Assembly (NCBI GenBank): GCA_034722955.1
Contig: JAYEOM010000012.1
Location: 1 to 24,787, forward strand
Direction: 5' to 3'
Length of the DNA: 24,787 nt
Source: Campylobacterota bacterium
GTDB taxonomy: Bacteria; Campylobacterota; Campylobacteria; Campylobacterales; Sulfurovaceae
The notes below the pieces were generated by a model, which saw nothing but the letters and a program-made list of their open reading frames with translations, was not told the DNA's origin and searched no databases. This document shows positions 2,300 through 24,542 of this stretch, one piece after another; positions within the stretch are counted from its first letter, which is position 1; every line of letters begins with the position of its first letter. The position numbers and the translations under genes were made by a program.

Positions 2300-4066
2300 T
2301 TAAAACTCAACAAAAAATCCATTTTCTTTGAGAATCTTTGTGAGTTTTGGTAACTCTTTTCTAGAGACTATGATACGGTATCCTGATGCTTTAGTGACTA
2401 GCTCTTGGAGTTTTTTGTTATTCATAAATATATTGAGCAGAGCTTTGTTATTTTCTAGTTCTATGACGACTTGTGAGGGTTCTCTTTTTAGGAGGTTTGA
2501 TTTGGCATATATCTCATCAAAGTAGTTATCAAACAGCACAGGTACAGGCTTGTCAAAGAGCGTGTAGAACTTGTCTATCTTGGCTTCTAGTATTTTATTG
2601 CTCTCGCAACCTTTAAATATTTTGCTATAGCTCAATATATATCGATTGCTATCATACTTATCTGTGTAGGGTTCGAGCTTGGCTAACATAATAGCATCAT
2701 TATTTTGTATAGTAATGATAGGTTTGTACTCATCAAATTTGACGGTAGAAGCTTTCTCTGCTATCTTGGGTGCAGTATATCTCTCTTCAAAATCAAAGAT
2801 ATATCTCCCAAGAGCAGTGAGCTTGACATATCTGAGTCCATCCCATACAGAGATATAGGGTTTTCCTTTGGCTGTGATACTATTGGGCAAAATACTACTG
2901 AGTGAAAGAGGGTCGTTATATTTGAGCTCTACGATGCCCAATGCTCCTAGATAAAAAAACATCCCTTTTAGCATAGGTTCAAAAATAATAGCATTATAGT
3001 TTTTATCCTCTGCAAAGAGCCTATCATCATGGACTCTTTGAGGGTCTACATCCATATAGTAGCGTTCTGTTGCATAAGATGACTCAAGATCTATACGAAA
3101 ATCCCTATAGTTACAGTAGTTAATAATATTATCAAAATCTACCCAACCCTTTTTTGGTATTTTCTCAATAACTATTTTGACAATATCAAAGAGCTCTAAC
3201 TGTTCGTCACTATATTTACCAAACTTCACCTTGCGGATATGACTCAGAAAAACTCGCGATATTGTATAGCTAAAGATATCATTGAGCTGTAGAGTAATAA
3301 AAGTTTTGAGCGTCTCTAGTGGTGTTTTTTTAAATCTTTGCTTCTCCCAATAATAGAAAGAAAAACTACGAGTCAACATATCCATAGCCAAGGAGTCCAT
3401 CTTTTTGGTAGGGAAAAACTCTTGATTGGAAGTAGTAGATTTAAGTATATTGAGACTTTTTGCGAGGGGTTTCTCTCCTGTTTTGCCAAATGCTATGAGG
3501 TTGGTCTTGAGCATCTCTTCGATAGTTGTTATTATACTTAGAATATTTGATTCATTACTGTAGGTGTAAGTTGTATCATCTATTTGATGAGCCTCTCTCA
3601 ACTCATAATCATCAGGCAGAGGATGGATAAGTTTGAGAATAGGTCGGATTCTCTGGTGAATATAGATACTATCTTCATTCCAATAACTGTATTTGTAAAT
3701 CAAGCTTAAATGACCATTGAATTTCTCTTCACTATAATCAACACGCGTTGTATTGTTAGAGTTTAGACCAAATTTATCTTCTCCCTCCTCTACGCTCATC
3801 TCTTTTTGTTTCCACAGGAGTCTATAGTAGAGCTCTTTAGATTGGGGTGTTGTAGTGAGTTGGTGATAAAACTTTGTTTTATACTCCTCATCTTTGATAA
3901 GTTTTGAGAGCAATTCGATCATCTGTCTCTTATTTTTTCTAGGCTGTGGATATTTTTTTTGGTCTATGAGTCCCTTTTGGTAACCAGTGATTGCCTTTAG
4001 TTGCAGCATAGTCGCACCATTTATGATATCAAACAACTCTTTGTCAGAGACTTGCATCCACTTCAC
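2300..4066 (-). CDS. Helicase-associated domain protein (XPB-associated Helicase_C_3/p52-like C-terminus), paralog 2, 588 aa
   Basis: Long ORF. GTG start overlaps the upstream TGA. Motifs YLGALGIVEL and YVKLTALGRYI; C-terminal VVIELENNKALL…RIIVSRKELPKLTKILKENG is similar to the upstream gene. Confidence 0.75.
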   Translation of the reverse strand: MKWMQVSDKELFDIINGATMLQLKAITGYQKGLIDQKKYPQPRKNKRQMIELLSKLIKDEEYKTKFYHQLTTTPQSKELYYRLLWKQKEMSVEEGEDKFGLNSNNTTRVDYSEEKFNGHLSLIYKYSYWNEDSIYIHQRIRPILKLIHPLPDDYELREAHQIDDTTYTYSNESNILSIITTIEEMLKTNLIAFGKTGEKPLAKSLNILKSTTSNQEFFPTKKMDSLAMDMLTRSFSFYYWEKQRFKKTPLETLKTFITLQLNDIFSYTISRVFLSHIRKVKFGKYSDEQLELFDIVKIVIEKIPKKGWVDFDNIINYCNYRDFRIDLESSYATERYYMDVDPQRVHDDRLFAEDKNYNAIIFEPMLKGMFFYLGALGIVELKYNDPLSLSSILPNSITAKGKPYISVWDGLRYVKLTALGRYIFDFEERYTAPKIAEKASTVKFDEYKPIITIQNNDAIMLAKLEPYTDKYDSNRYILSYSKIFKGCESNKILEAKIDKFYTLFDKPVPVLFDNYFDEIYAKSNLLKREPSQVVIELENNKALLNIFMNNKKLQELVTKASGYRIIVSRKELPKLTKILKENGFFVEF

Positions 4067-5823
4067 ACTATCGCTCCATGCTCTTTCAATACCTTTTTGA
4101 CATAAGTCAAATCATCCTTGAGAACCACTATATGGAGTTTGTCTGCTTTGAGTATCTTCTCTTGGAGTTTTGGGTGTGAGGCGATGATACCCTGTATCTC
4201 TTTGGGGTTTTTGATCTCTATGAGTATAGCAGAACGGCTCACGATAGTGATAGAGTCTATGCGTCTCTCTATAGTGTCAAAGAGCCTCTGCCAATTCTCA
4301 GGAACACTCTCGCATTTGGAGAGAAGCTCCTCTTTGAGGATATGGAAGCTTTGAGCTGTATCTACAATATTCATGAGCTTCTTGAGTGTGGTTTGGTATT
4401 TGTGTTCTGTAATCTGCGTCGCCATAGGGGAGAGGAGGAGTTCAGAGCGACTACTTGGATTGTCTACTGTGATCTCGAAGGCATAGGGGTTGAGTTTTAG
4501 AGTGAAGTTGCTCTCCTCTGCAAAGCTCTTCTCTAGCCCAAGTACAAAGCGACCCAACTTGGTTAACTTGATATACTCTATATTGATAAATGGTCTGTTA
4601 TAATAGCCATCAGATCGTTTTAACTCGTCTGCTATAAAGCTCTCTTTGGCTGTAGTCGCAAGAGTGAAGAGCCCGAAATTAGAGGCGATACCGACAAAGC
4701 TCTTGATAAAGTATCGTACAACCATCTTGAGGTCTTTGAGCTGGTTGTACCCATCGCGTCGACGGCGATAATCGTGCTCAAAGTTGTAACAGTAGGGGTA
4801 GCCATTGCTGATCTGTGTGATCACTTTATTGGTGAGTGGTATCTCCTCAGTGAAAAAGTCTATACTTATCCACTCATCGCTATTGAGATTGGCTATGGTC
4901 TCCAAGAGAGTTTTTCTAAATTTCGCAACATCTTTTCCTGAAGTTGCGTCAATATCAAATATAACAAAATTAAACTCTTGTTGCATCTTATGTGCGACAT
5001 ATTTGTCAAAGAGTGCCTGGATGAGTTTGCCATCATCTCTCATAATCACACTATCAAATGCTTTGGTGGGGAGTTTGAGCTGCGGCTTAGTAAGATATTG
5101 GATATCCAAAAGAAAATTGATCAACCAAATATAGTAGTGGGGATCCGCAGAGATACTCTCCTCTATGAATCTTCTACTACGGACGGTAAGTGTTCCTTTT
5201 TGAGTGATTTTGAGTTTGGAGTCTTTGGCAAGACGATAGAAAAAGCGTACAATAGAGACGATATCTTGAGGCTCCTCTACGATGAGCTTTTGCGAAAGAG
5301 GCATGAAGTCACCATCTACTTTGTGAATCTTGATACTGTTGATATCTTTGGTAGTGTCTGGGTGCTTGGCTGGTATAGGGGGTGTCTCTTTCTTGTTAGG
5401 GATTAGAGTATCATCTCCCAAAAATCTGAAAAAGTAGTATCTCAAGACCTCATCCATCTCATTTTGGTCTATGAAAAGTTCAAGCCACCAGACATAGATC
5501 ATCTGAGGACCTCTAGTCATAGAGACGATATCAAACTTAAACTTCTTCTTCACGGCAGCTCGTAGATTTCCCCCCCTATGGTTGACTATATACTTGAGTA
5601 TTTTTTGCTCTCTAGGTGTGAGCTTGCTATAGAAATGCTCCAAATACCCCTCGGATACAATCGTATCGGGGATGATATTTGTCGCTAGCTCTCTCTTTGT
5701 GGCACCAAAAAAGAAATTGATATCATACTTACTGCATAGGGTTTTGAGTGCACCCTCACTGAGCAGTATATACTTTTTATACACTATCTCTATAGACTCA
5801 TCCTCTTCATAAAACATATCCAT
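4063..5823 (-). CDS. Helicase-associated domain protein (XPB-associated Helicase_C_3/p52-like C-terminus), paralog 1, 586 aa
   Basis: Long ORF 4 nt downstream of the SNF2 stop. Motifs LKITQKGTLTVRS and YIKLTKLGRFVLG; C-terminal AILIEIKNP…LHIVVLKDDLTYVKKVLKEHG. Confidence 0.75.
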   Translation of the reverse strand: MDMFYEEDESIEIVYKKYILLSEGALKTLCSKYDINFFFGATKRELATNIIPDTIVSEGYLEHFYSKLTPREQKILKYIVNHRGGNLRAAVKKKFKFDIVSMTRGPQMIYVWWLELFIDQNEMDEVLRYYFFRFLGDDTLIPNKKETPPIPAKHPDTTKDINSIKIHKVDGDFMPLSQKLIVEEPQDIVSIVRFFYRLAKDSKLKITQKGTLTVRSRRFIEESISADPHYYIWLINFLLDIQYLTKPQLKLPTKAFDSVIMRDDGKLIQALFDKYVAHKMQQEFNFVIFDIDATSGKDVAKFRKTLLETIANLNSDEWISIDFFTEEIPLTNKVITQISNGYPYCYNFEHDYRRRRDGYNQLKDLKMVVRYFIKSFVGIASNFGLFTLATTAKESFIADELKRSDGYYNRPFINIEYIKLTKLGRFVLGLEKSFAEESNFTLKLNPYAFEITVDNPSSRSELLLSPMATQITEHKYQTTLKKLMNIVDTAQSFHILKEELLSKCESVPENWQRLFDTIERRIDSITIVSRSAILIEIKNPKEIQGIIASHPKLQEKILKADKLHIVVLKDDLTYVKKVLKEHGAIV

Positions 5824-5827
5824 ACCT

Positions 5828-8587
5828 CTACCCCAATATATAATCTAAATCAGAAGCAGTCAACTGCTTGAGTCCACCCTCATCACCACTGATGATCATA
5901 TCGGTCATATCCTGTTTTTGTCCTTGTAGCTCTAGTATCTTCTCCTCTATCGTATCTTTGGTGATCATCTTGTAGCTGAAGACTTTGTTTTTCTGTCCCA
6001 TTCGGTGGGCTCTATCTACAGCTTGATTCTCTGCCGCCCTGTTCCACCACGGATCAAAGATAAAGACATAATCCGCCTCTGTGAGGTTCAACCCTACACC
6101 GCCGACCTTGAGTGTCATGAGAAAGAGTTTGATCTTTTTGTCATTTTGGAACTTGTCGACTAGCTCTTGTCTGTTGCGTGTGCTTCCTGTCATCAGGAGA
6201 TGATCATACCCTAGCTCATCAGCTTTGGCGGAGATGAGGTCGAGTGAGCCTAAATAGTTGGCAAAGAGCAGGACTTTGTGACCATTGAGGATGATATCAC
6301 TTAGCATCTCAAAGAGATTATCTATCTTAGAAGAAGCGATATGGTTCTCCGACTTGAGTTCTGGAGCAGAGGCTATCTGTCGCAAGTCATTGAATGCTTG
6401 GAGTATCACAAAACGAGAATTTTGGATACCATTGGCTGCTATCTGTTGGTCGAGCAGCTGCTTGTAGTAGTCTCGCTTCTCATTGTAGAACTTCTTGTGT
6501 GGCTCCTCCATATCGACATAGACCACTTGCTCCTGTTTGTCGGGCAAGTCTTTGAGTACATCTTGCTTGAGTCGTCGCAGGAGGAACGGAGTGATCTTCG
6601 CTTTGAGTAGATGAGCGACCTCTTCGTCGGCTTCGGCTTGTATCGGGATAGCAAAATCTCGCTTGAAGTCAGCTACTCCAGAGAAGATCCCCTCATTGAG
6701 AAATCGAAAGAGAGAAAATAGCTCAAAGAGTGAATTCTCTATAGGTGTACCACTCAGTGCAAACTTATGTTTGCCATTGAGCAGCATCACTGCTTTGGAT
6801 ATCTTCGATTCGATATTTTTAACATTTTGTGACTCATCGAGGATGATGGTATCAAATTTCATCTCTCTTAGCTTCTCTATATCGTTTCTCACTATAGCAT
6901 AAGAGGTGAGTACGATATGGTGTTTTTGTATCTCCTCTACATCTCTCTCGTTCCCATAGTAGAGGTAGTAGGAGAGTTCAGGGTTAAATCTACTCAGCTC
7001 ATTTTGCCAATTGCTCAGCAGACTTCGAGGCATCACGATGAGTGAGGGGGTCTTGGTCTTTGGGTAGATAGTCGAGAGGAGTGTGATAGCTTGGAGGGTT
7101 TTTCCTAGCCCCATATCATCAGCTAGACAACCACCGAAGCCATTGTCATAGAGATACTTGAGCCATCTCGCTCCCTCTTTTTGGTAGTCTCTGAGGGTTA
7201 CATCTGCCAATTTCGGTAGTCTTGTTCTTGAAGATTTGAGCTTGTTGAATCCCTCATAGAACTTCCTGCTATCTTTGAAGACTCTCTGCTCTTTTTGGGC
7301 GATGAGCTCCTCTATCTCAGGGAGGTCAAAAAAGGAGACTTTGATTTTATCTTTGCCTTGTTTTTTAAATATCCGCTCTAGTCGTGAGATATAGGATTTG
7401 TCTACTATGGATTTGTCACCATTGGAGAGTGGGATATAGGAGTGTTTTTTGTAGAGGTTGACCATATCGAAGATATCGAAGCTATCATCACCGATAGTCA
7501 CACTCACATCTCCTGCATCCAAAAAGTCTATCTTATCTTTGAATGCGATGTTGAGTGATGGCGGATTGGTGTTATATTTATAAGCTTTGAGTTTCTCACT
7601 CCCAAAGAGTTCACACTTGGCGATGATAGTATGGAGGTGACTGAGGATAAACTCTGTCGCTATCTCCTCTTCGATGACAAACAATCCATCCTCTTCACTG
7701 AAACTGGCATTTTTGTTTTTTCTGTTCAGTGCTGTGAGGTTTTTAAATATCATCCCATAGACTTCAAAGACTTCAGAGAAGTCACACTCATGCAGAGAGA
7801 TGCTCTTCTCTAGCTCATTGATAAGTACGATTTTAGTGATATTGAAGTCATTGAAAAACTCTGGCGAGAGCTTACCTACGGTCGCAGAGGTGCGGAGTAT
7901 CAGCTCATTTTCTGCTGTGATCTTCTCAAATATTACGGCTGGCTTAATGATTTTAAGCTCCTCTTTTTGTTCGACACTGTAGTGGTCATAGTCTATGACG
8001 ATATTTTCAAAGTGAGTAGTAAGGATAGTGAGTAGCTCTTCGAGTTTGTTTGGCTCTATGGTGGTGTTGAAGTTTTTGAGTTGCCTGTAGTGATCTCCTA
8101 CGAAGTGTACCTGCTGAATGGACTCTCCTGCCAAGATATAGCTTGGAGTCAAAAACTTAAACTCACTCTCTCCACCGACCATAGAGGTTACTACAAGTTT
8201 GTCTGCTACACTCTGCGTATCTACATAGATGGCTACATCACGAATCCCATCAGCAAAAGAGAGCCCTTTGCCCTCCTCTGTGATGAGTTTGTCGCTTTGA
8301 CGAAGCAGTTCGAGCAGTCTAGGGTGTTTGTCGAGATAGACCTGTTCCCCCTCATCCTCCCAAGAAATCTCAAAAAAAGCCTCCTGCTTGCACTGGTCAA
8401 GAAGCTGGAGTATCTCTCTATCTAGTCCGCTATAGACACGATAATCTACTCCAGTAAGTAGTTTGAGCTTGTTGTCACACAACTCCAGATAAGCCCCATG
8501 ATTATCAAATTTTAACAGATAATGAAAGCTCCTCTTCTCTTTTGCACGGGTCAAAAAACTTTTATCTTGTTTGAAAATATCTAGCAT
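5828..8587 (-). CDS. SNF2/SWI2-family SF2 ATPase (DNA translocase), ~919 aa
   Basis: LRDYQKEG (Q motif), LADDMGLGKT (Walker A), ILDESQNVKN (Walker B), ALSGTPIEN, and FDPWWNRAAENQAVDRAHRMGQ (motif VI). Start moved from 8668 to ATG 8587 (MLDIF) because of a GAGGA RBS and an upstream extended -10. Confidence 0.93.
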   Translation of the reverse strand: MLDIFKQDKSFLTRAKEKRSFHYLLKFDNHGAYLELCDNKLKLLTGVDYRVYSGLDREILQLLDQCKQEAFFEISWEDEGEQVYLDKHPRLLELLRQSDKLITEEGKGLSFADGIRDVAIYVDTQSVADKLVVTSMVGGESEFKFLTPSYILAGESIQQVHFVGDHYRQLKNFNTTIEPNKLEELLTILTTHFENIVIDYDHYSVEQKEELKIIKPAVIFEKITAENELILRTSATVGKLSPEFFNDFNITKIVLINELEKSISLHECDFSEVFEVYGMIFKNLTALNRKNKNASFSEEDGLFVIEEEIATEFILSHLHTIIAKCELFGSEKLKAYKYNTNPPSLNIAFKDKIDFLDAGDVSVTIGDDSFDIFDMVNLYKKHSYIPLSNGDKSIVDKSYISRLERIFKKQGKDKIKVSFFDLPEIEELIAQKEQRVFKDSRKFYEGFNKLKSSRTRLPKLADVTLRDYQKEGARWLKYLYDNGFGGCLADDMGLGKTLQAITLLSTIYPKTKTPSLIVMPRSLLSNWQNELSRFNPELSYYLYYGNERDVEEIQKHHIVLTSYAIVRNDIEKLREMKFDTIILDESQNVKNIESKISKAVMLLNGKHKFALSGTPIENSLFELFSLFRFLNEGIFSGVADFKRDFAIPIQAEADEEVAHLLKAKITPFLLRRLKQDVLKDLPDKQEQVVYVDMEEPHKKFYNEKRDYYKQLLDQQIAANGIQNSRFVILQAFNDLRQIASAPELKSENHIASSKIDNLFEMLSDIILNGHKVLLFANYLGSLDLISAKADELGYDHLLMTGSTRNRQELVDKFQNDKKIKLFLMTLKVGGVGLNLTEADYVFIFDPWWNRAAENQAVDRAHRMGQKNKVFSYKMITKDTIEEKILELQGQKQDMTDMIISGDEGGLKQLTASDLDYILG

Positions 8588-8612
8588 GAAGTTCCTCATT
8601 TTGTTTATTGAT

Positions 8613-8621
8613 ATTTTAGCA
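8613..8621 (-). promoter_or_regulatory. Extended -10 for the SNF2 operon
   Basis: Minus strand TGCTAAAAT (TGnTAAAAT), about 26 nt upstream of ATG 8587. Confidence 0.5.
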
Positions 8622-8716
8622 CCTATACCTAAAATTTGATTGTTAGTGAATGATATATGAAGAGGCATGGCAAGAAATGAGCAATAATTTTTAGATTTTT
8701 GGATTCAATGCAAGAG

Positions 8717-17378: not shown

Positions 17379-17638
17379 TGCAGTTAAGTGTAGATATTCA
17401 AGATAATAACATAGCAGAAAAAATTTTATGGTTTTTAAGTACCTTTTCAGATAAAGGTGTCAAAGTAGAGAAAGTAGTACCTTCAAAAGTCTATGATGAT
17501 GAAGAGATAGATGAGGAGTATCTTGAGAAAAATTGGAGAGAATTAGTCGTGACAAGTGTTGATAGTTCTGACTACTACAAAAGTGAACAATATTATGCAG
17601 ATAGAGTAAAAGATTGCAAATCAAGAGATAAAATTTGA
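17375..17638 (+). CDS. Small acidic hypothetical protein, putative antitoxin
   Basis: AAGGAG RBS; 87 aa with an acidic stretch; translationally coupled to the downstream PIN-containing gene. Confidence 0.65.
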
Positions 17639-19152
17639 ATTATATATTAGATATTAATATCATATTAGACTGTTTCAATCATCACAGAAGAAGAAAATTT
17701 CAAAATTCTGTTAAAGTGTATGATTTGCTCTATAAAAGTGCAGAAAATACTTTTATATCTTCATCTTCACTTGATAACATTGCATTTGTAAAAAGAGATG
17801 AACTAAAAGAAGAGAAAGGTTATTCAACTCAAAAAGCTAAAAGAGTAACAAGTTTACTAATTAAAGATATTATAGCACATTTCAAGATAGCAAAAACACC
17901 ATCATATTTAAAGATAGATTATGAAGATATAGAAGACTCTCAATTGATAGCATCAGCAAAAGCAGTCAACGCAAAAGTAATAACAAGAGATAAAAAAATG
18001 TTGAAAAAACATCCAGATATTACAATAACAGCAGAGTCATTTTTAAAAAACCATCAATCAAAAAGAGTTATAGACTTCGCAAACCTAAAAAAACAGTACT
18101 ACATGTACCAATCAGAACTAGAAGAGGGGATGGACAGAGTCCTAAACAGTGCTAACTATATCATGGGTGATGCAGTAAGCCGACTAGAGACAAATCTACA
18201 AGAGTTCACAGGTACTAAACATGCCATAACTTGCAGTAGTGGTACAGATGCTCTGCTATTAGCTATGATGGCTATCGATATTCAACCGGGTGACGAGATC
18301 ATCACAACTCCCTTTACTTTCATAGCCACGGCTGAGACTATTGCCTTCTTAGGTGCCATCCCTGTATTTGTGGACATAGATGAGAAGAGTTACAATATCG
18401 ATCCCTCCAAGATAGAAGCAGCCATCACAGACAGAACCAAAGTAATCATGCCTGTAAGTCTCTATGGTCAACCTGCAGAGATAGATCTCATCCAAGCTAT
18501 CGCAGATAAACATGATCTTAAAGTTATCATTGACGGTGCTCAGTCATTTGGTGCTACCTACAGAGGCGAGAGAGAGAGTAGCCTGGGAGATATATCTACA
18601 ACTTCATTTTTCCCCGCTAAACCACTTGGTTGTTTTGGAGATGGTGGAGCAGTGTTCACAAATAATGATGCCCTTGCAAAGAAGATCAAATCACTCAGAG
18701 TACACGGTCAGACCAAACGGTACCATCACCAATATATCGGTATGGGCGGGAGGATGGATGCACTACAGTGTGCTATTGTGGATGTAAAGCTGAAGTACTA
18801 TCCAAGAGATTTGGCTTTACGGCAAGAGGTTGCTAGTAGATATATGAAGTCACTCAGAGGTAAAGAGCTGATAATCCCCTTCGTCTCTAACGATACTACT
18901 TCTGCTTGGGCTCAATACTCCATAAGAGTTCAAAACCGTGATGAGCTTCAAGCTAAACTGAAGGAAGAAGGTATCCCGACAGCTATTCACTACCCAAAGC
19001 CTCTACACCTACAAGAGGCTTTTAGATATCTCGGCTACAAAAAAGGAGATTTTCCTGTTGGAGAGAGTGTGAGCAGCGAGATCATATCCCTGCCAATGAA
19101 CCCATATTTGACAGATGAAGAGATACAATATATAGGTGAAAATATCAAATGA
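17635..19152 (+). CDS. wbpE: Fusion protein: N-terminal PIN domain + DegT/DnrJ PLP aminotransferase (WbpE-like)
   Basis: Residues 1-~140 carry PIN motifs (YILDINII, EDIEDSQLIASA, VITRDK). From ~18070 the sequence reads IDFANL…SSGTDAL, IIDGAQSFGA and SFFPAKPLGCFGDGG (PLP Lys). One continuous frame. Confidence 0.88.
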   Translation: MNYILDINIILDCFNHHRRRKFQNSVKVYDLLYKSAENTFISSSSLDNIAFVKRDELKEEKGYSTQKAKRVTSLLIKDIIAHFKIAKTPSYLKIDYEDIEDSQLIASAKAVNAKVITRDKKMLKKHPDITITAESFLKNHQSKRVIDFANLKKQYYMYQSELEEGMDRVLNSANYIMGDAVSRLETNLQEFTGTKHAITCSSGTDALLLAMMAIDIQPGDEIITTPFTFIATAETIAFLGAIPVFVDIDEKSYNIDPSKIEAAITDRTKVIMPVSLYGQPAEIDLIQAIADKHDLKVIIDGAQSFGATYRGERESSLGDISTTSFFPAKPLGCFGDGGAVFTNNDALAKKIKSLRVHGQTKRYHHQYIGMGGRMDALQCAIVDVKLKYYPRDLALRQEVASRYMKSLRGKELIIPFVSNDTTSAWAQYSIRVQNRDELQAKLKEEGIPTAIHYPKPLHLQEAFRYLGYKKGDFPVGESVSSEIISLPMNPYLTDEEIQYIGENIK

Positions 19153-19236: not shown

Positions 19237-19698
19237 TTGTCAATGTATAATGATCTCTCTGTTTTTATTGATGATTCTCTCTTTAGAGATATTATAGATC
19301 ATACACCACTAGTTTCACTTGATCTTGTGGTCAAAAAAGATGGAAAAGTCTTGCTAGGGCAGCGGTGCAATAGACCTGCCAAGGGGTATTGGTTTACGAT
19401 TGGCGGACGCATCCTCAAAAATGAGAAGATCCGTGACACGATTCATCGGATTGCTAGAGATGAGTTGGGGACAGAGTTGACTAATGCAGCTGAATTTGTC
19501 GGTCTGTTTGAACACTTTTACGATGATGGTATCTATGAGGGTGTCTCTACACACTATGTAAATCTGGTCTACGAAGCAGAGGTTGATGACCTGCCCGCTC
19601 TTCCGGATGATCAGCACGATACCTATCGATGGTTTGGCATCGATGAACTGCTAGAGAGTGAAAATGTCCATCAATACATCAAAGATATTTTCAAATAA
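19237..19698 (+). CDS. gmm: GDP-mannose mannosyl hydrolase (Nudix)
   Basis: [24 protein letters not shown]. Confidence 0.9.
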
Positions 19699-19708
19699 AG
19701 GAATTTTA

Positions 19709-20905
19709 ATGCACAAAAACAGTATTATTTTCATTGCCGGTGGTACCGGCTTAGTCGGTTCTGCCATCATCAAATCACTGCTTGCCAAAGGGTATACCAA
19801 TATTATCTCCAATTATCATCATCGAAAACCCCAAAATGATGCCATAGAGTACTATCCGCTCGATCTGACAAAGCAGCAGAATGTAGAGTATTTTTTTGAA
19901 ACTTTTAAACCCGAATATGTTTTTCTAGCTGCTGCCAAGGTCGGCGGCATCATCGCCAACAACATCTATCGTGCAGAGTTTATCTACAGCAATCTCGTGA
20001 TCCAAAACAATATCATAGATATCAGCTACCGCTACGGTGTCAAAAAGCTCCTCTTCCTGGGCTCCACCTGCATCTATCCCAAAGATTGCCCACAACCGAT
20101 GAGAGAGGAGTATCTGCTCACAGGTGAACTTGAATACACCAATGAACCCTACGCCATCGCCAAGATCGCCGGTATCAAGATGTGCGAGAGCTACAACCTC
20201 CAGTACGGTACCAACTTCATCTCTGTGATGCCTACCAACCTCTATGGTCCCAATGATGGTTTTGACTTGGAAAAGTCCCATGTCCTCCCCGCAATGCTCC
20301 GCAAGATGCACCTCGGTAAAGCCCTCGAAGAGAGTAACTGGGATGCCATTCGGGTAGACCTAGAGAAGCTGCCCATCGAAGAGATCGATGGAAACGCAAG
20401 CGAAGAGGATATTTTGTCAATTCTCAATAGATACGGCATCAAAACACCCGATACAGATCAGGGTGCTGTCCAGATCGAGATCTGGGGTTCCGGAAAACCA
20501 CGCCGCGAATTTCTCTGGTCCGAGGATATGGCAGATGCCTGCGTCTTCCTCATGGAAAACAGGGACTTTCAGGATATGTATCCATCCCGTCACTCCGAAC
20601 TCGATACAGAGCCTCAAGATGATGGCAAACTTTGTGACACTGCAACCCTACAAACAAGCTCTGAGATCCGCAACACCCATATCAATATCGGCACTGGCAT
20701 CGATATATCCATCAAAAAACTGGCAGAAACGATCAAGGAGATCATAGGCTACCAAGGCGATCTCTATTTCAACACAGACAAACCAGACGGCACGATGCTC
20801 AAGCTCACTGACCCTACTAAACTGCACGATCTGGGATGGCACCATACGGTTGAGCTGAGAGATGGGATAGAAAAGATGTATGCGTGGTATAGAGAGAGTA
20901 AATAG
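19709..20905 (+). CDS. fcl: GDP-L-fucose synthase (epimerase/reductase)
   Basis: [66 protein letters not shown] 19709 follows an AAGGA RBS. Confidence 0.93.
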
Positions 20906-20974: not shown

Positions 20975-21193
20975 GTGTATGCAGTAGAATTTGAAACACA
21001 TATTGAGAATGGTATAGTACAGGTACCTGAAAAATATACATCATTGCAATCTGTTGATGCGAAAATTATTATATTAGCGAAAGAAATGGCTGTTAATACT
21101 GCTTTTGATCCCAGCACTTTTTTTGGTTCTGCCCATGTTTCTAAAAAAGAGATAGATGCTTACTTAAATGCTTCCAAAGACGAATGGCAATAG
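20975..21193 (+). CDS. Putative antitoxin (72 aa)
   Basis: AVEFETHIENGIVQVP N-terminus; abuts a PIN gene; TATAAT upstream at 20940-20945. Confidence 0.65.
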   Translation: MYAVEFETHIENGIVQVPEKYTSLQSVDAKIIILAKEMAVNTAFDPSTFFGSAHVSKKEIDAYLNASKDEWQ

Positions 21194-21484
21194 ATGAATG
21201 CACTTCTTGATACGAATATATTGATTTATTATTTTAATGGGCTTATTGATGATGTAGAGTTAGATAAAAAAGCAAAAGCATTTGTCTCTTATGCAACATT
21301 GTTTGATTTAGATGATTCCATAGCACAAACAACAATAAAGTTAAGACGTAATTTTAAAACAAAAACACTTGACGCTATTATAGCTGCAACGGCATTGGTA
21401 AACAATATGTCAGTTGTAACAAATAATCGCTCTGATTTTGAGGTATTGGGACTAGATGTGATAGGTATAAATGTTAAATTATAG
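21194..21484 (+). pseudogene. vapC: VapC/PIN toxin with probable internal in-frame deletion
   Basis: LLDTNILIY and DAIIAATAL…VTNNRSDF are present, but at 96 aa it lacks the central S-x-I-T-x-x-E segment of PIN domains. Confidence 0.7.
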
Positions 21485-21489
21485 TAATT

Positions 21490-21533
21490 TGTCATTGTCA
21501 CCCCTTAGGATTTGGAGTGACAGCTAAATGACA
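21490..21533. repeat. REP-like nested hairpin
   Basis: TGTCATT…AATGACA outer arms; TGTCACCCC…GGAGTGACA inner arms (8/9 complementary). Confidence 0.55.
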
Positions 21534-21556
21534 TTAGCATCACCCCCCTTAGTTCT

Positions 21557-21584
21557 AATCACGAATTACGAATTACAAGTCACA
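21557..21584 (+). repeat. Heptamer tandem repeat (AATCACN type), intergenic
   Basis: AATCACG AATTACG AATTACA AGTCACA. Confidence 0.75.
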
Positions 21585-21621
21585 TTCAAAAAGGGTGGAA
21601 ACATAGTATTGAGCTTGAATA

Positions 21622-21663: not shown

Positions 21664-22977
21664 ATAAATAATATAAAAATAGCAGTAATCGGATTAGGGT
21701 ACGTTGGCTTACCATTGGCACATGCATTTTCGGAAAAGTATGAAGTAGTCGGCTTTGACATCGCACAGTGGCGTATTGATGAATTAAGTGATGGTCTTGA
21801 CCGTACTTTAGAGTTAAGTGAAGTTCAGGTGAAAGAAGCTATCTCTCATGGTATGCAGTTTACAAACATTTTGGGAGAGATCGCTGATTGTAATATCTAT
21901 GTAGTTACAGTTCCTACACCTATAGACAAACATAAAAAGCCAGACCTTACACCACTTATCAAAGCAAGCGAATCAATTGGTAAGGTACTGAAAAAAGATG
22001 ATATTGTCATCTATGAGTCTACAGTATACCCTGGTGCGACAGAAGAAGAGTGTGTTCCCGTACTCAAAAAATTCTCAGGACTAAAATACATCTCATCTGA
22101 AACCATTAACCAATCACGAATTACTAATCACGAATCACCAGAAACCAACGGTTTCTACTGTGGTTATTCTCCTGAACGTATCAACCCGGGAGATAAAGAA
22201 CACACTGTTACGAAGATCTTAAAAGTAACAGCAGGTTCTACACCTGAGATCGGTCAAAAAGTAGATGATCTTTATGCCTCTATCATCACTGCAGGCACAC
22301 ATCTTGCTCCAAGTATTAAAGTGGCTGAAGCTGCAAAGGTCATCGAAAACTCACAACGTGACATCAACATTGCCTTCGTCAATGAATTAGCGATCATCTT
22401 CAACAAACTCGACATTGACACAGAAGCAGTACTTGAAGCAGCCGGAACAAAATGGAATTTCTTACCATTCCGTCCAGGTTTAGTGGGTGGGCACTGCATA
22501 GGTGTAGACCCTTATTACTTGACGCACAAGGCACAAGAGGTCGGTTACAATCCGGAGATCATCCTTGCAGGACGTCGCCTGAATGATAACATGGGAATGT
22601 ATGTAGCCAATCAAGTACTCAAGCTGATGATCCAAAAAGAACATAAAATTGCAGGTGCAAAAGTCTTGGTTCTTGGTATTACCTTTAAAGAAAATTGTCC
22701 GGATATTAGAAATTCTCGTGTCATTGATGTCATAAAGGAATTACAAGAGTTTGGAACTGATGTCAGTGTCTATGACCCATGGGCTGATTCTGAAGAGGTA
22801 AAACGTGAATACGGATTGGATCTTTTACCGTCATTAGATACAAAATACGATGCTGTTGTTTTAGCTGTTGCACATGATAAGTTTGATGGACTTGATATTG
22901 AAAAACTAAAAAGTGGAAATGATACTGTCATTTACGATATCAAATCAAAACTTGAAGAAAGTGACGGGAAATTATAG
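21664..22977 (+). CDS. UDP-N-acetylhexosamine 6-dehydrogenase (TviB/WbpO family), copy 2; starts at ATA rather than ATG
   Basis: Homology to copy 1 extends upstream of the ORF-track TTG: ATA AAT AAT ATA AAA ATA GCA… = (I/M)[18 protein letters not shown]. Same catalytic motifs as copy 1. Confidence 0.85.
22105..22139 (+). repeat. Heptamer tandem repeat inside the dehydrogenase copy 2 coding sequence
   Basis: ATTAACC AATCACG AATTACT AATCACG AATCACC, within an 18-aa insertion relative to copy 1. Confidence 0.8.
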
Positions 22978-22987
22978 AGCTTTGCTC

Positions 22988-23015
22988 TGTGATTGGTAAT
23001 TAGTGAATGGTGATT
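22988..23015 (-). repeat. Heptamer array (inverted orientation) upstream of the four-helix-bundle gene
   Basis: TGTGATT GGTAATT AGTGAAT GGTGATT; 22989-23006 is the exact reverse complement of 23369-23386. Confidence 0.85.
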
Positions 23016-23026
23016 GGGAAAATAAG

Positions 23027-23352
23027 ATGAAAACTCATATGGATTTTGTAGAAAACATTTATAAAATGAGTAGTACGTTCCCTAAAGAAGAAATGTATGG
23101 TCTGACATCTCAAATTCGAAGAGCGGCTGTTTCCGTTCTGAGTAATATTACAGAAGGTGCATCACGACAAGGTTCTAAAGAGTTTATACAATTTTTATAT
23201 ATCTCTCTCTTGGTTCCCTTTCTGAAGTGGAAACACAAATCATGTTAGCAAAAAGACTAAATTTCGTTAACAATATAGATATAATTTTAAAAGAGATCAT
23301 AACCATTAAAAAAATGCTTAATGGATTAATTCGTAATGTAAAGAGTAAATGA
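23027..23352 (+). pseudogene. Four-helix-bundle protein (23S rRNA IVP/'S23'-like family), frameshifted
   Basis: MKTH-MDFVENIYKMSSTFPKEEMYGLTSQIRRAAVSVLSNITEGASRQGSKEFIQFLYIS, then a second frame LGSLSEVETQIMLAKRLNF…KMLNGLIRNVKSK*. Removing one TC unit from the (TC)4 tract at 23202-23209 joins the frames. Confidence 0.88.
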
Positions 23353-23366
23353 ATGAAAAAGAAATC

Positions 23367-23401
23367 AATCACTAATTACCAATCACTAGTCACCAATTAT
23401 A
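23367..23401 (+). repeat. Heptamer array downstream of the four-helix-bundle gene
   Basis: AATCACT AATTACC AATCACT AGTCACC AATTATA. Confidence 0.85.
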
Positions 23402-23411
23402 TTCCAAAGGA

Positions 23412-24542
23412 ATGTATGTAATGAACCAAGAACAAATCACCAATAACGAATCACTAATCACAGCTTTTGAAAAGCTCCTAGAGCAATTCAAAACCAACCA
23501 GAAAACCTGGCTGATAACGGGCAATGCCGGCTTTATAGGGTCTAATTTAACAGAGTTCTTACTTTCACACAATCAAAAGGTTGTTGGTTTAGACAACTTT
23601 TCCACTGGCTATCAACACAACATTGATGACATTTTGGCATCAGTAGGTGAAGAGGCTGCGAAGAACTTTACTTTTATTGAGGGTGATATTGCAGACTTTG
23701 AAACTTGTGTTAAGGCATGTGAGGGTGTGGACATTGTCTTGCATCAAGCTGCACTGGGTTCAGTTCCTCGTTCCATCGCTGACCCTGTGACTTCCAACCG
23801 TTCTAATATTACCGGTTTTCTTAACATGCTTACCGCAGCCAAAGATTCAGGTATCAAGCGGTTTGTTTATGCGAGCTCAAGTTCGGTTTATGGTGACTCT
23901 AAAGAGCTTCCTAAGGTAGAAGAGCGTACGGGCAATCTCCTCTCTCCCTACGCAGCGATGAAAATGACCAATGAACTCTACGCAGGTGTTTTCCAAAAGA
24001 CTTATGGCATGGAGACTCTTGGTCTGCGTTACTTTAATGTCTTTGGCCGCCGTCAAGATCCAGATGGTGCATACGCAGCTGTTATCCCCAAATGGGTAGG
24101 TTCTCTTCTTGAAGGTGAAGATGTCTACATCAACGGTGACGGAGAAACCAGCCGTGACTTCACCTACATAGACAATGTCATCCAGATGAATCTATTGGCT
24201 GGAACCACAGACAACACAGAAGCCTTTGGAGAAGCGTTTAATGTAGCAGTAGGAGGAAGAAACACCCTCAACGAACTTTACAAGATCATCAACGATAACC
24301 TCGTAGAGCAATTGCCCCGCCAGGAAATGCCCTTGGGGTGCAAAATTAATAATTTAAAATTTAAAATTCCCGAAGGCCCTGTTTTCAGGGACTTCAGGGC
24401 AGGCGACATTCGCCACTCCAACGCCAACATCTCAAAAGCCCAAAACTTTGTAGGCTATGCCCCAACTCATGACATATACCAAGGTATGCAAGAAGCCATA
24501 AACTGGTACATAGAAAATATAGGTAACAAGAATGAAAACTAA
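23412..24542 (+). CDS. wbpP: UDP-GlcNAc(A) 4-epimerase (WbpP/TviC family SDR)
   Basis: WLITGNAGFIGSNL, HQAALGSVPRS, SPYAAMK (YxxxK), LRYFNVFGRRQDP, GETSRDF, FRAGDIRHS. Start is ATG 23412 or 23421. Confidence 0.9.
   Translation: MYVMNQEQITNNESLITAFEKLLEQFKTNQKTWLITGNAGFIGSNLTEFLLSHNQKVVGLDNFSTGYQHNIDDILASVGEEAAKNFTFIEGDIADFETCVKACEGVDIVLHQAALGSVPRSIADPVTSNRSNITGFLNMLTAAKDSGIKRFVYASSSSVYGDSKELPKVEERTGNLLSPYAAMKMTNELYAGVFQKTYGMETLGLRYFNVFGRRQDPDGAYAAVIPKWVGSLLEGEDVYINGDGETSRDFTYIDNVIQMNLLAGTTDNTEAFGEAFNVAVGGRNTLNELYKIINDNLVEQLPRQEMPLGCKINNLKFKIPEGPVFRDFRAGDIRHSNANISKAQNFVGYAPTHDIYQGMQEAINWYIENIGNKNEN
23435..23462 (+). repeat. Heptamer array within the wbpP N-terminal extension
   Basis: AATCACC AATAACG AATCACT AATCACA. 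Confidence 0.75.
24342..24369 (+). repeat. AT-type heptamer array inside wbpP
   Basis: AAAATTA ATAATTT AAAATTT AAAATTC, encoding KINNLKFKI. Confidence 0.7.

Follow-up and report, generated by a model that had tools for sequence, protein, structure and literature searches.

We analysed a 24,787-nucleotide (nt) stretch of DNA from a Campylobacterota bacterium of the family Sulfurovaceae (the window; contig JAYEOM010000012.1 of assembly GCA_034722955.1, below C12), in which a small gene for a four-helix-bundle protein is enclosed by inverted arrays of a 7-nt unit. The assembly (genome G000) is a draft of 140 contigs and 2,512,544 bases, and all results rest on the assembled sequence rather than on reads. 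The four-helix-bundle gene (23027..23352, plus strand) was assigned by Pfam and NCBIfam to PF05635/TIGR02436, the ‘23S rRNA intervening-sequence protein’ (IVP) family, and is the sole PF05635 locus of the genome. To our knowledge this is a very large family of no known function, known since the 1990s only as the open reading frame (ORF) of ribosomal RNA (rRNA) intervening sequences (IVSs). Upstream of the gene lies a uridine diphosphate (UDP)-sugar dehydrogenase of the UDP-glucose/guanosine diphosphate-mannose family (21664..22977, plus strand; PF03721, PF00984 and PF03720 in Pfam, and an alignment with seven homologues), and downstream of it a nicotinamide adenine dinucleotide-dependent sugar epimerase, WbpP-like by family (23421..24542, plus strand; PF01370, E 3e-58).

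The initial annotation had described a perfect 18-base-pair (bp) inverted repeat set in opposed 7-bp arrays around the gene, and both direct reading and a repeat search bear this out. Over 18 nt, GTGATTGGTAATTAGTGA (22989-23006) and TCACTAATTACCAATCAC (23369-23386) are exact reverse complements of each other. The repeat search extended the arms to 22989-23009 and 23366-23386 (21 nt, 95% complementarity) and detected a second, register-shifted pairing of 22997-23020 with 23376-23399 (24 nt, 83%), and Tandem Repeats Finder placed the arms within period-7/14 arrays at 22989-23015 and 23366-23397. The 5' or G-type arm (22988..23017, plus strand) reads GTGATTG GTAATTA GTGAATG GTGATTG G and begins 11 nt past the dehydrogenase stop codon (22975-22977). 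Its perfect partner, a 3' or C-type arm (arm no. 1; 23366-23401, plus strand), reads AATCACT AATTACC AATCACT AGTCACC AATTA. A further C-type array (23435-23462, plus strand; AATCACC AATAACG AATCACT AATCACA) makes up epimerase codons 5-14 and is taken below as the ancestral 3' arm.

Tandem Repeats Finder located additional arrays at 21557-21576, 22112-22138 and 23435-23461, which the repeat search delimited as 21557-21584, 22112-22139 and 23435-23462, and the four direct array copies belong to one repeat family. The arrays 22112-22139 and 23435-23462 are situated inside the dehydrogenase and epimerase ORFs, respectively. Same-family arrays near 21557, 22105 and 23435, two of them within ORFs, had likewise been predicted, together with their absence from the first 21 kb; a tolerant scan of the whole window agrees, with five arrays and none before 21557. 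Under a strict pattern (A[AG]T[CTA]AC N, at least three units) four occurrences were found genome-wide, all of them in C12 21557-23462. Every array of at least three units of the AATYACN type in the 2.5-Mb genome thus lies within 1.9 kb of the four-helix-bundle gene. Two-unit matches number 13 in the genome, six in C12 21483-23462 and seven on other contigs, the latter never exceeding two units, and genome-wide Tandem Repeats Finder analysis returned no other array of this unit above 2.3 copies.

Upstream of the dehydrogenase, at 21483..21584 (plus strand), a degenerate G-type (left-arm) stretch (TAGTAATTTGTCATT, 21483-21497) is followed by the C-type array 21557-21584 (AATCACG AATTACG AATTACA AGTCACA). 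The region looks like an arm pair without a gene, a reading with which the predicted RNA fold of 21478-21590 (z -3.05) is consistent. The corresponding spacer of G001, a genome of the same genus with 72-77% nt identity, contains no array.

Scanning metagenomes with the N-terminal portion of the four-helix-bundle protein yielded two orthologous loci, L149 and L150. In amino acids (aa), L149 is 92% identical to the present protein over the 60 residues compared, and its DNA is 79% identical; the values for L150 are 80% aa and 70-75% nt. Both loci contain dehydrogenase, intact IVP gene (122 aa in L149, 124 aa in L150) and epimerase in that order, with one 3' arm each, and their 5' arms are orthologous to the one described here. 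In both, the IVP stop codon overlaps the epimerase ATG (TAATG; ATATAATG), and the 3' arm constitutes epimerase codons 5-14. The window copy has no intact ORF of the usual ~110-130 residues and is, as assembled, a pseudogene. Its N-terminal part (23027-23209) matches PF05635 at E 1.8e-22 (80 bits against a cut-off of 33.8; profile positions 7-66) and the NCBIfam model TIGR02436 ‘four helix bundle protein’ at 79.4 bits against a cut-off of 24. The C-terminal part (23212-23352, +2 frame) falls below the PF05635 cut-off (E 3.7e-05, 24.4 bits); it picks up the profile exactly where the N-terminal part ends, at positions 67-106. The frame is broken near 23203-23211, where one additional TC in a (TC)n run (TATATCTCTCTCTTGG versus TATA--TCTCTCTTGG in the orthologues) causes a +2 frameshift, and after codon 5 a deletion of 27 nt has removed nine codons, DLDVWKKSM in the orthologues. 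Both lesions are unique to this genome when compared with the intact L149 and L150 genes.

A DNA search for the flanking genes covered 41 genomes, G000 included, and the two genes adjoin each other in the same order in two of them (G001, G005). In G001 the site is empty: the dehydrogenase stop codon overlaps the epimerase ATG (TTATAATG), and neither an IVP gene nor a heptamer array is present at the junction, nor an array upstream of the dehydrogenase. The comparison of filled and empty sites that had been proposed as a check therefore finds an empty site within the genus. The G005 spacer holds a different small element. Relative to G001, the ancestral 3' arm gives the epimerase a 12-residue N-terminal extension. 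Alignment to L149 and L150 further reveals a segment of about 68 nt that is specific to this genome (23353..23420, plus strand), a length matched by the spacing of 68 within a second direct-repeat family. This segment contains arm no. 1 together with a new Shine-Dalgarno-like AAGGA 8 nt before the epimerase ATG. Arm no. 1 agrees with the 5' arm at 18 of 18 bases, including two at which the 5' arm of L149 differs. Because the new arm follows the 5' arm even at these two bases, its perfection probably reflects recent copying between the arms. A 12-nt identity (GGAATGTATGTA) between the new ribosome-binding region and the dehydrogenase was judged to be within chance expectation for 3 kb.

The initial annotation had proposed a candidate mobile element without a transposase. 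A discrete cassette with an empty counterpart in G001 is what we find, and no transposase, integrase or reverse transcriptase was detected by Pfam among the 23 window ORFs scanned. The notion of recent mobility does not fit this copy, because the cassette is common to lineages that are only 70-79% identical in DNA.

Arrays of the arm unit have also entered the neighbouring genes. The in-frame array in the dehydrogenase ORF (site A; 22098..22146, plus strand) comprises about seven units with the core AATCACG AATTACT AATCACG AATCACC. It is an insertion relative to five of seven aligned homologues (L150, G001, G005, G020, G038); L149 carries the same insert, and in G014, a genome of another genus, the protein alignment places an array of an unrelated unit there. 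Arm-unit arrays within ORFs occur at dehydrogenase site A (G000, L149) and site B (L149, L150), in an epimerase loop of L150 (…ITNHQSPIT…) and at the epimerase N-terminus of G000, L149 and L150. The cassette-less genomes have no arm-unit insert in the dehydrogenase (G001, G005, G020, G038) or in the epimerase (G001, G004). Sites A and B and the loop are separate events, within a sample of few cases in which the three filled loci are kin. In-ORF arrays of the same unit at differing sites in orthologous loci fit the earlier suggestion that the element could ‘spread and leave heptamer scars’. In a wider sample of 131 relatives' loci, 30 have an exact match of at least 14 nt to their own arm region at a distance of over 250 nt from the gene (cross-locus control, 7/653 pairs). 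Units such as GTGATTN bring a TGA into all frames within three units. No stops occur in the C-type arm, and for this reason the in-ORF arrays are solely C-type and such an arm can be used as an N-terminal extension. Solo AATYACN arrays were additionally found in two genomes, G124 and G043 (loci L146, L147 and L148), at the ends of or inside housekeeping ORFs, namely in the N-terminal part of mutS, in a phosphomannomutase gene whose first Pfam domain falls into two separate stretches, and in an open frame ahead of a PhnA-domain gene.

A separate arrangement was seen in G014 (locus L229, G014:C21:39300-44500), where an IVP cassette is located 1 kb downstream of the dehydrogenase. This dehydrogenase has four in-ORF arrays: two of ACTCARC, one N-terminal and one at site A, and, close to the C-terminus, an inverted pair (AATTGAK / ATTATCC). 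Gene-less hairpins of the cassette's own arm unit GAAGGNW come after the IVP cassette, at 3160-3239 and 4563-4722.

The layout is not peculiar to this lineage. Across the family, at least three consecutive AATYACN units occur in 26 of 151 genomes, the present one counted, and in none of 13 other genomes of the same genus. A strict AATYACN scan around 17 PF05635 genes in five array-rich family genomes found none of them flanked (0/17), which looked like a refutation; the strict motif was the wrong test, because each gene has inverted arrays of its own unit. Inspected by eye, 16 of the 17 genes are enclosed by inverted 7-nt arrays whose unit differs per gene, and one has an array downstream only. 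We then considered the 80 best relatives in named genome contigs, which stem from about 20 phyla and share 51-74% identity. An array with a period of 6-8 nt is present on at least one side in 71 of these 80 loci and on both sides in 44. Period-7 arrays number 81 in 23.2 kb beside the ORFs versus 66 in 176.5 kb farther out, and period-8 arrays 30 versus 18. With cross-locus pairings as controls, perfect inverted repeats of at least 12 nt between the 120-nt flanks were found in 24 of 76 usable loci (cross-locus 95th percentile 10.2 nt). Mismatch-tolerant arm complementarity exceeds the cross-locus 95th percentile in 66 of 94 loci, drawn from genome contigs and same-family genomes, and the 99th in 46; the independent metagenome loci gave 41 of 66 above the 95th percentile and a lag-7 autocorrelation of 0.408, versus 0.265 in distal DNA. 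Where both consensus units were clean, the upstream unit and the reverse-complemented downstream unit are at most one base apart in 20 of 34 loci, as against 54 of 816 cross-locus pairs. The arms have a mode of four units (60/192 arrays) and a median of five. The inverted heptamer arrangement around four-helix-bundle genes, for whose enrichment the initial annotation had proposed a test, recurs around homologues in many phyla.

In 100 of 107 loci (61/66 plus 39/41) G outnumbers C in the 5' arm. This bias is not a polarity relative to the gene, because an inverted repeat reads alike on both strands. It amounts to a choice of the configuration 5'-G-rich…C-rich-3', for which the stop content of the arms may be either the cause or a by-product of the way in which arms are made. 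Neighbouring genes are mostly on the same strand, downstream in 62 and upstream in 65 of 73 loci. By Pfam name and our own classification, which left out ABC transporters without a Wzt domain, 32 of the 73 downstream neighbours (~44%) are nucleotide-sugar or polysaccharide genes, a share that may overstate the family-wide tendency because the loci sampled are those most closely related to a cassette in a glycan locus.

At the level of RNA, a stem between 22988-23017 and 23363-23397 is predicted for the sense transcript of 22975-23410, in the minimum-free-energy as well as the centroid structure. The whole fold amounts to -97 kcal/mol (z -4.0), and none of 100 shuffles was as stable. The genome encodes RNase III (an rnc homologue).

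We think it fairly probable that the locus is a decaying copy of a widespread transposase-less cassette, in which one PF05635 gene sits between inverted 7-nt arrays and which has the build of an IVS placed in an mRNA operon. The cassette would have entered the dehydrogenase/epimerase overlap before the split from the two metagenomic lineages, and its stop-free 3' arm would have turned into the first epimerase codons, translationally coupled to the IVP gene through TAATG. In the present genome the IVP gene would then have died by the 27-nt deletion and the +2 slip, and the added 68-nt segment would have supplied an independent ribosome-binding site and a fresh 3' arm, a complement copy of the 5' arm. 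The arms may be the active part of the cassette, kept complementary by concerted templated copying, for which we infer template switching at a quasi-palindrome. They would also seed solo arrays and gene-less hairpins into DNA within ~1-2 kb, and those landing in ORFs would last only if in frame and in the C-type, stop-free orientation. Once transcribed, the arms may form a stem of ~30 bp, a putative substrate of RNase III by analogy with the Coxiella IVS.

Several observations weigh against parts of this account. That the transcript folds with the ORF in the loop, as the initial annotation had inferred, agrees with the prediction for the window copy and fails for L149, where no arm-arm stem is predicted (z -0.13, 36 of 100 shuffles as stable); in L150 a stem is predicted and the whole fold is no more stable than shuffles (z -1.04). 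Over 66 loci, arm mismatches are equally often G·U/U·G (81) and A·C/C·A (80). Without a wobble excess, selection on a sense-RNA stem is not visible, although the equal classes are still compatible with such a stem because unit heterogeneity (Y/R positions) yields both equally. An RNA cut in the 3' arm of L149 or L150 would moreover detach the epimerase start codon, because that arm is translated. Taken together, the comparative sequence data for this lineage weaken the ideas, also raised earlier, of RNA excision and of a regulation of glycan genes. No PF05635 gene with an AATCACG-type unit was found in G124 and G043, so arrays can persist, or perhaps arise, independently of such a gene. The flanks of L063, L069 and L103 bear direct instead of inverted arrays. 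The sampled loci are the nearest relatives of one protein, many of them from metagenome-assembled genomes, and are not independent. Finally, the two lesions of the gene could in principle be assembly errors, and only if they are real is it a pseudogene.

A bolder version of the account, which we consider improbable, holds that the heptamer arms are written rather than inherited, by reiterative templated addition of one short unit at each 3' end of an intermediate that is linear or a hairpin. Both 3' ends carry the same C-rich unit, because the G-rich array is 5' on either strand in the 100 of 107 loci named above. If true, such writing would explain why each cassette has a unit of its own with matching arms, why arms have 4-5 units and how a fresh arm could appear on a dead gene. 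An Avd-like pentamer might then recruit or guide the copying enzyme, as its cousin in diversity-generating retroelements (DGRs) escorts the reverse transcriptase, and solo arrays seeded by abortive events would become the in-frame peptide inserts of neighbouring genes. Such a system would be new both as a class of bacterial mobile element and as a source of protein insertions.

An unlikely explanation is that the arrays are operators or binding sites, and that the four-helix-bundle protein binds its own 7-nt units in DNA or RNA, thereby regulating, protecting or mobilising the arms. The strict 7-nt periodicity and the 4-5 units per arm resemble a multimer-binding array, and the solved, uncharacterised proteins 2GSC and 2RLD, homologues matched by the intact orthologue, were deposited with five chains each in the crystals. 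Arm words correlate with protein identity (Spearman 0.215; reached by 0 of 2000 Mantel permutations), with a trend also in cross-phylum pairs (mean cosine 0.037 -> 0.151), and three of the 15 proteins nearest to that of the window (from Deferribacterota and Bacteroidota) have a GTGATT unit, a fourth being intermediate. The correlation is weak and we do not claim a protein-to-unit recognition code; indeed, 11 of the same 15 proteins (57-64% identity) have an arm-word cosine of at most 0.20. Solo arrays in genomes without a PF05635 gene of that unit and the near-perfect arms next to a dead gene in the window also speak against binding as the reason for the arrays. There is little to recommend the idea that the arrays are simple-sequence contingency repeats of a surface-glycan locus, whose slippage switches dehydrogenase and epimerase while the small gene is a mere neighbour. 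Each 7-nt unit does move the reading frame by one, arrays are found at the epimerase start and within the dehydrogenase, glycan genes make up the 32 of 73 downstream neighbours of related cassettes, and phase-variable heptanucleotide repeats are described for the capsule-modifying gene neuO in the accessible part of the published record. Yet the epimerase-start array has four units in G000, L149 and L150 despite 70-79% nt identity, and phase variation at this array was rejected on account of the constant number; its units (AATCACC AATAACG AATCACT AATCACA) are not uniform, a heterogeneity that suppresses slippage. At site A the inserts of G000 and L149 differ by 6 nt rather than 7, and homogeneous units varying in number by one between close relatives were not found. 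Inverted arrays also flank PF05635 genes in his, ATP synthase and hydrogenase contexts, and slippage alone leaves the inverted arrangement unexplained.

It is very improbable that the locus is a classical non-autonomous DNA transposon with a passenger gene, similar to a miniature inverted-repeat transposable element, the arms being terminal inverted repeats for a transposase encoded elsewhere. Inverted ends, filled and empty sites, and the nearby gene-less hairpins of the same unit (21483-21584 here, and those in G014) are what one would expect of such an element, and AGCTTT recurs as a 6-nt direct repeat on either side of the whole insert (22978-22983 and 23462-23467). Since arm sequences vary between cassettes, even in one genome, a single transposase could not recognise all of them. 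The cassette is present in a single copy in the genome, Pfam detected no transposase in the scanned window ORFs, and AGCTTT was rejected as a target-site duplication: it is not kept in L149 and L150, and, with the placement free to vary, 6 nt does not exceed chance. Conserved terminal repeats, a fixed target-site duplication and many copies, the marks of such transposons, were all not observed. Chance or an assembly artefact, which a draft of 140 contigs might invite, has a negligible probability: a perfect 18-nt repeat within ~400 nt is far beyond chance (control 95th percentile 10.2 nt), and the same layout exists in two independently assembled metagenome contigs and in more than 100 other loci.

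The decaying IVS-type cassette can be set beside several known systems. The weak similarity to the DGR accessory protein Avd, which is pentameric and binds nucleic acids, is that of a small four-helix-bundle protein of related fold and family. The bAvd model PF22296 scores E 0.0011 on the window gene (19.9 bits against a cut-off of 40) and NF033474 (Avd) E 6e-4 on the relative L062; scores under the curated cut-offs and no RVT domain in the 23 window ORFs scanned by Pfam do not make it an Avd. Unlike Avd systems, the locus has no reverse transcriptase in the scanned ORFs, and no template/variable repeat pair was seen. The two intact orthologue proteins matched no PADLOC defence-system family. 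An IVS of 23S rRNA was reportedly also described in Leptospira by Ralph and McClelland in 1993. [quoted passage not shown] Two to three tandem GACAGAT units, whose count is strain-variable, precede the S23p start, and RNase III cleaves at the start of the first repeat (PMC4990558). The ORF is decayed in some strains, the guanine-plus-cytosine (GC) content lies below that of the host, and the distribution suggests horizontal transfer (PMC4990558). Like the Coxiella IVS, the present locus has a PF05635 gene and four heptamers in its 5' part (22988-23015), and its terminal repeats are predicted to form a stem enclosing the ORF, here though not in L149. In contrast to 23S IVSs, the cassette lies between dehydrogenase and epimerase genes and not in an rRNA helix (9, 25 or 45); one of its arms is translated into the downstream protein, and copies of the arms occur within neighbouring ORFs. 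Excision by RNase III has been demonstrated for 23S IVSs, whereas cleavage here is predicted by analogy. The accessible text on Coxiella treats the heptamers as a local detail and not as the building principle of both arms (PMC4990558). Relative to the literature that could be searched, mostly outside subscription journals and supplements, the Coxiella 23S IVS is the closest published parallel that we found, the present element being of IVS type in mRNA operons, and PF05635 genes outside rRNA have not been described as enclosed by heptamers.

Heptamer arrays as such have precedents. According to Elhai et al. (2008), Nostoc reportedly has very small dispersed repeats nested in tandem heptamers, some in frame in coding regions, and no associated gene cassette is said to have been described. 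GGGACCG x4 occurs at 49 intergenic and intragenic sites of Geobacter metallireducens (PMC2700814), and heptamer arrays (TAACTGA) are known from Beggiatoaceae and cyanobacteria (PMC4679880). As far as the accessible parts of these two papers go, the arrays likewise have ~4-5 heptamers between or within genes, at times several per gene, their function is unknown, regulatory RNA roles are proposed, and no link to PF05635 genes or to an inverted arrangement was found (PMC2700814, PMC4679880). Unlike the Geobacter and Beggiatoaceae arrays, those described here keep to the surroundings of a single cassette and have its arm unit. They may tie the unexplained arrays of Geobacter, Beggiatoaceae and cyanobacteria to a gene family. 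[quoted passage not shown]

Should the cassette account hold, PF05635 genes would reside almost everywhere in inverted heptamer arrays, in ordinary operons and in surface-glycan clusters especially. A curiosity of rRNA would become a general kind of cassette, with arms, empty sites and intact versus decayed orthologues as experimental handles. The locus itself can be read as a time series, from the empty site through intact copies coupled to the downstream gene to a dead gene with a renewed arm. It is direct comparative evidence for the copying of arm units into nearby genes, which tolerate them as in-frame inserts, and it would appear to record the concerted evolution of both arms.

As for the surroundings, window positions 14.5-24.5 kb hold a nucleotide-sugar cluster according to Pfam, with a first UDP-sugar dehydrogenase, a GFO/IDH/MocA oxidoreductase, a hexapeptide acyltransferase, a DegT aminotransferase, a NUDIX protein, an epimerase and a PIN-domain pair, followed by the dehydrogenase (21664-22977), the cassette and the epimerase (23421-24542). 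The PIN-domain pair (20975-21484), just upstream of the array region, consists of a 72-aa ORF without a Pfam match and a 96-aa PIN-domain ORF (VapBC-like). In the dehydrogenase next to the cassette the first ATG, GTG or TTG is at 21715, downstream of the Rossmann motif, and the codon aligned to the ATG of G001 is ATA (21664), 7-9 nt after AAGGA; the gene either starts at a rare codon or is likewise in decay.

The epimerase carries an in-frame insert of a second kind (24310..24368, plus strand), a 38-nt piece of a dispersed repeat followed by about four units of AAAATTN, which encodes PRQEMPLGCKINNLKFKIPEG in an epimerase loop and is absent at the corresponding site in L149, G001 and G004. The dispersed repeat of ~80 nt (…attgcccgYaggaaatgcccttggggtRcaaaaacgattaacg…gggaaacctcataaagcccgtaggg…) gave 26 further BLAST rows in the genome, ~17 of them with a long conserved flank; copies include C56:7105-7138, C39:7940, C28:31695, C10:1849 and C100:33237. 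The same 38-nt piece with AAAATTC heptamers forms the N-terminus of the G005 epimerase. At the gathering threshold, Rfam identified no rRNA or other family in the window or in two copies of the dispersed repeat.

On the minus strand at 2300-8668, two ORFs of ~590 aa without a Pfam match stand beside a 946-aa SNF2/helicase protein; the region may represent an island of defence type, and it differs in GC content from the first 3.5 kb. The DegT aminotransferase ORF (17635-19152) has ~160 extra residues N-terminal to its domain, with low GC (0.32-0.34). The epimerase at 19658-20905 (415 aa, ~90 residues over the usual length, GC 0.45-0.47) matches Pfam in two pieces, and both ORFs may hold further inserts.

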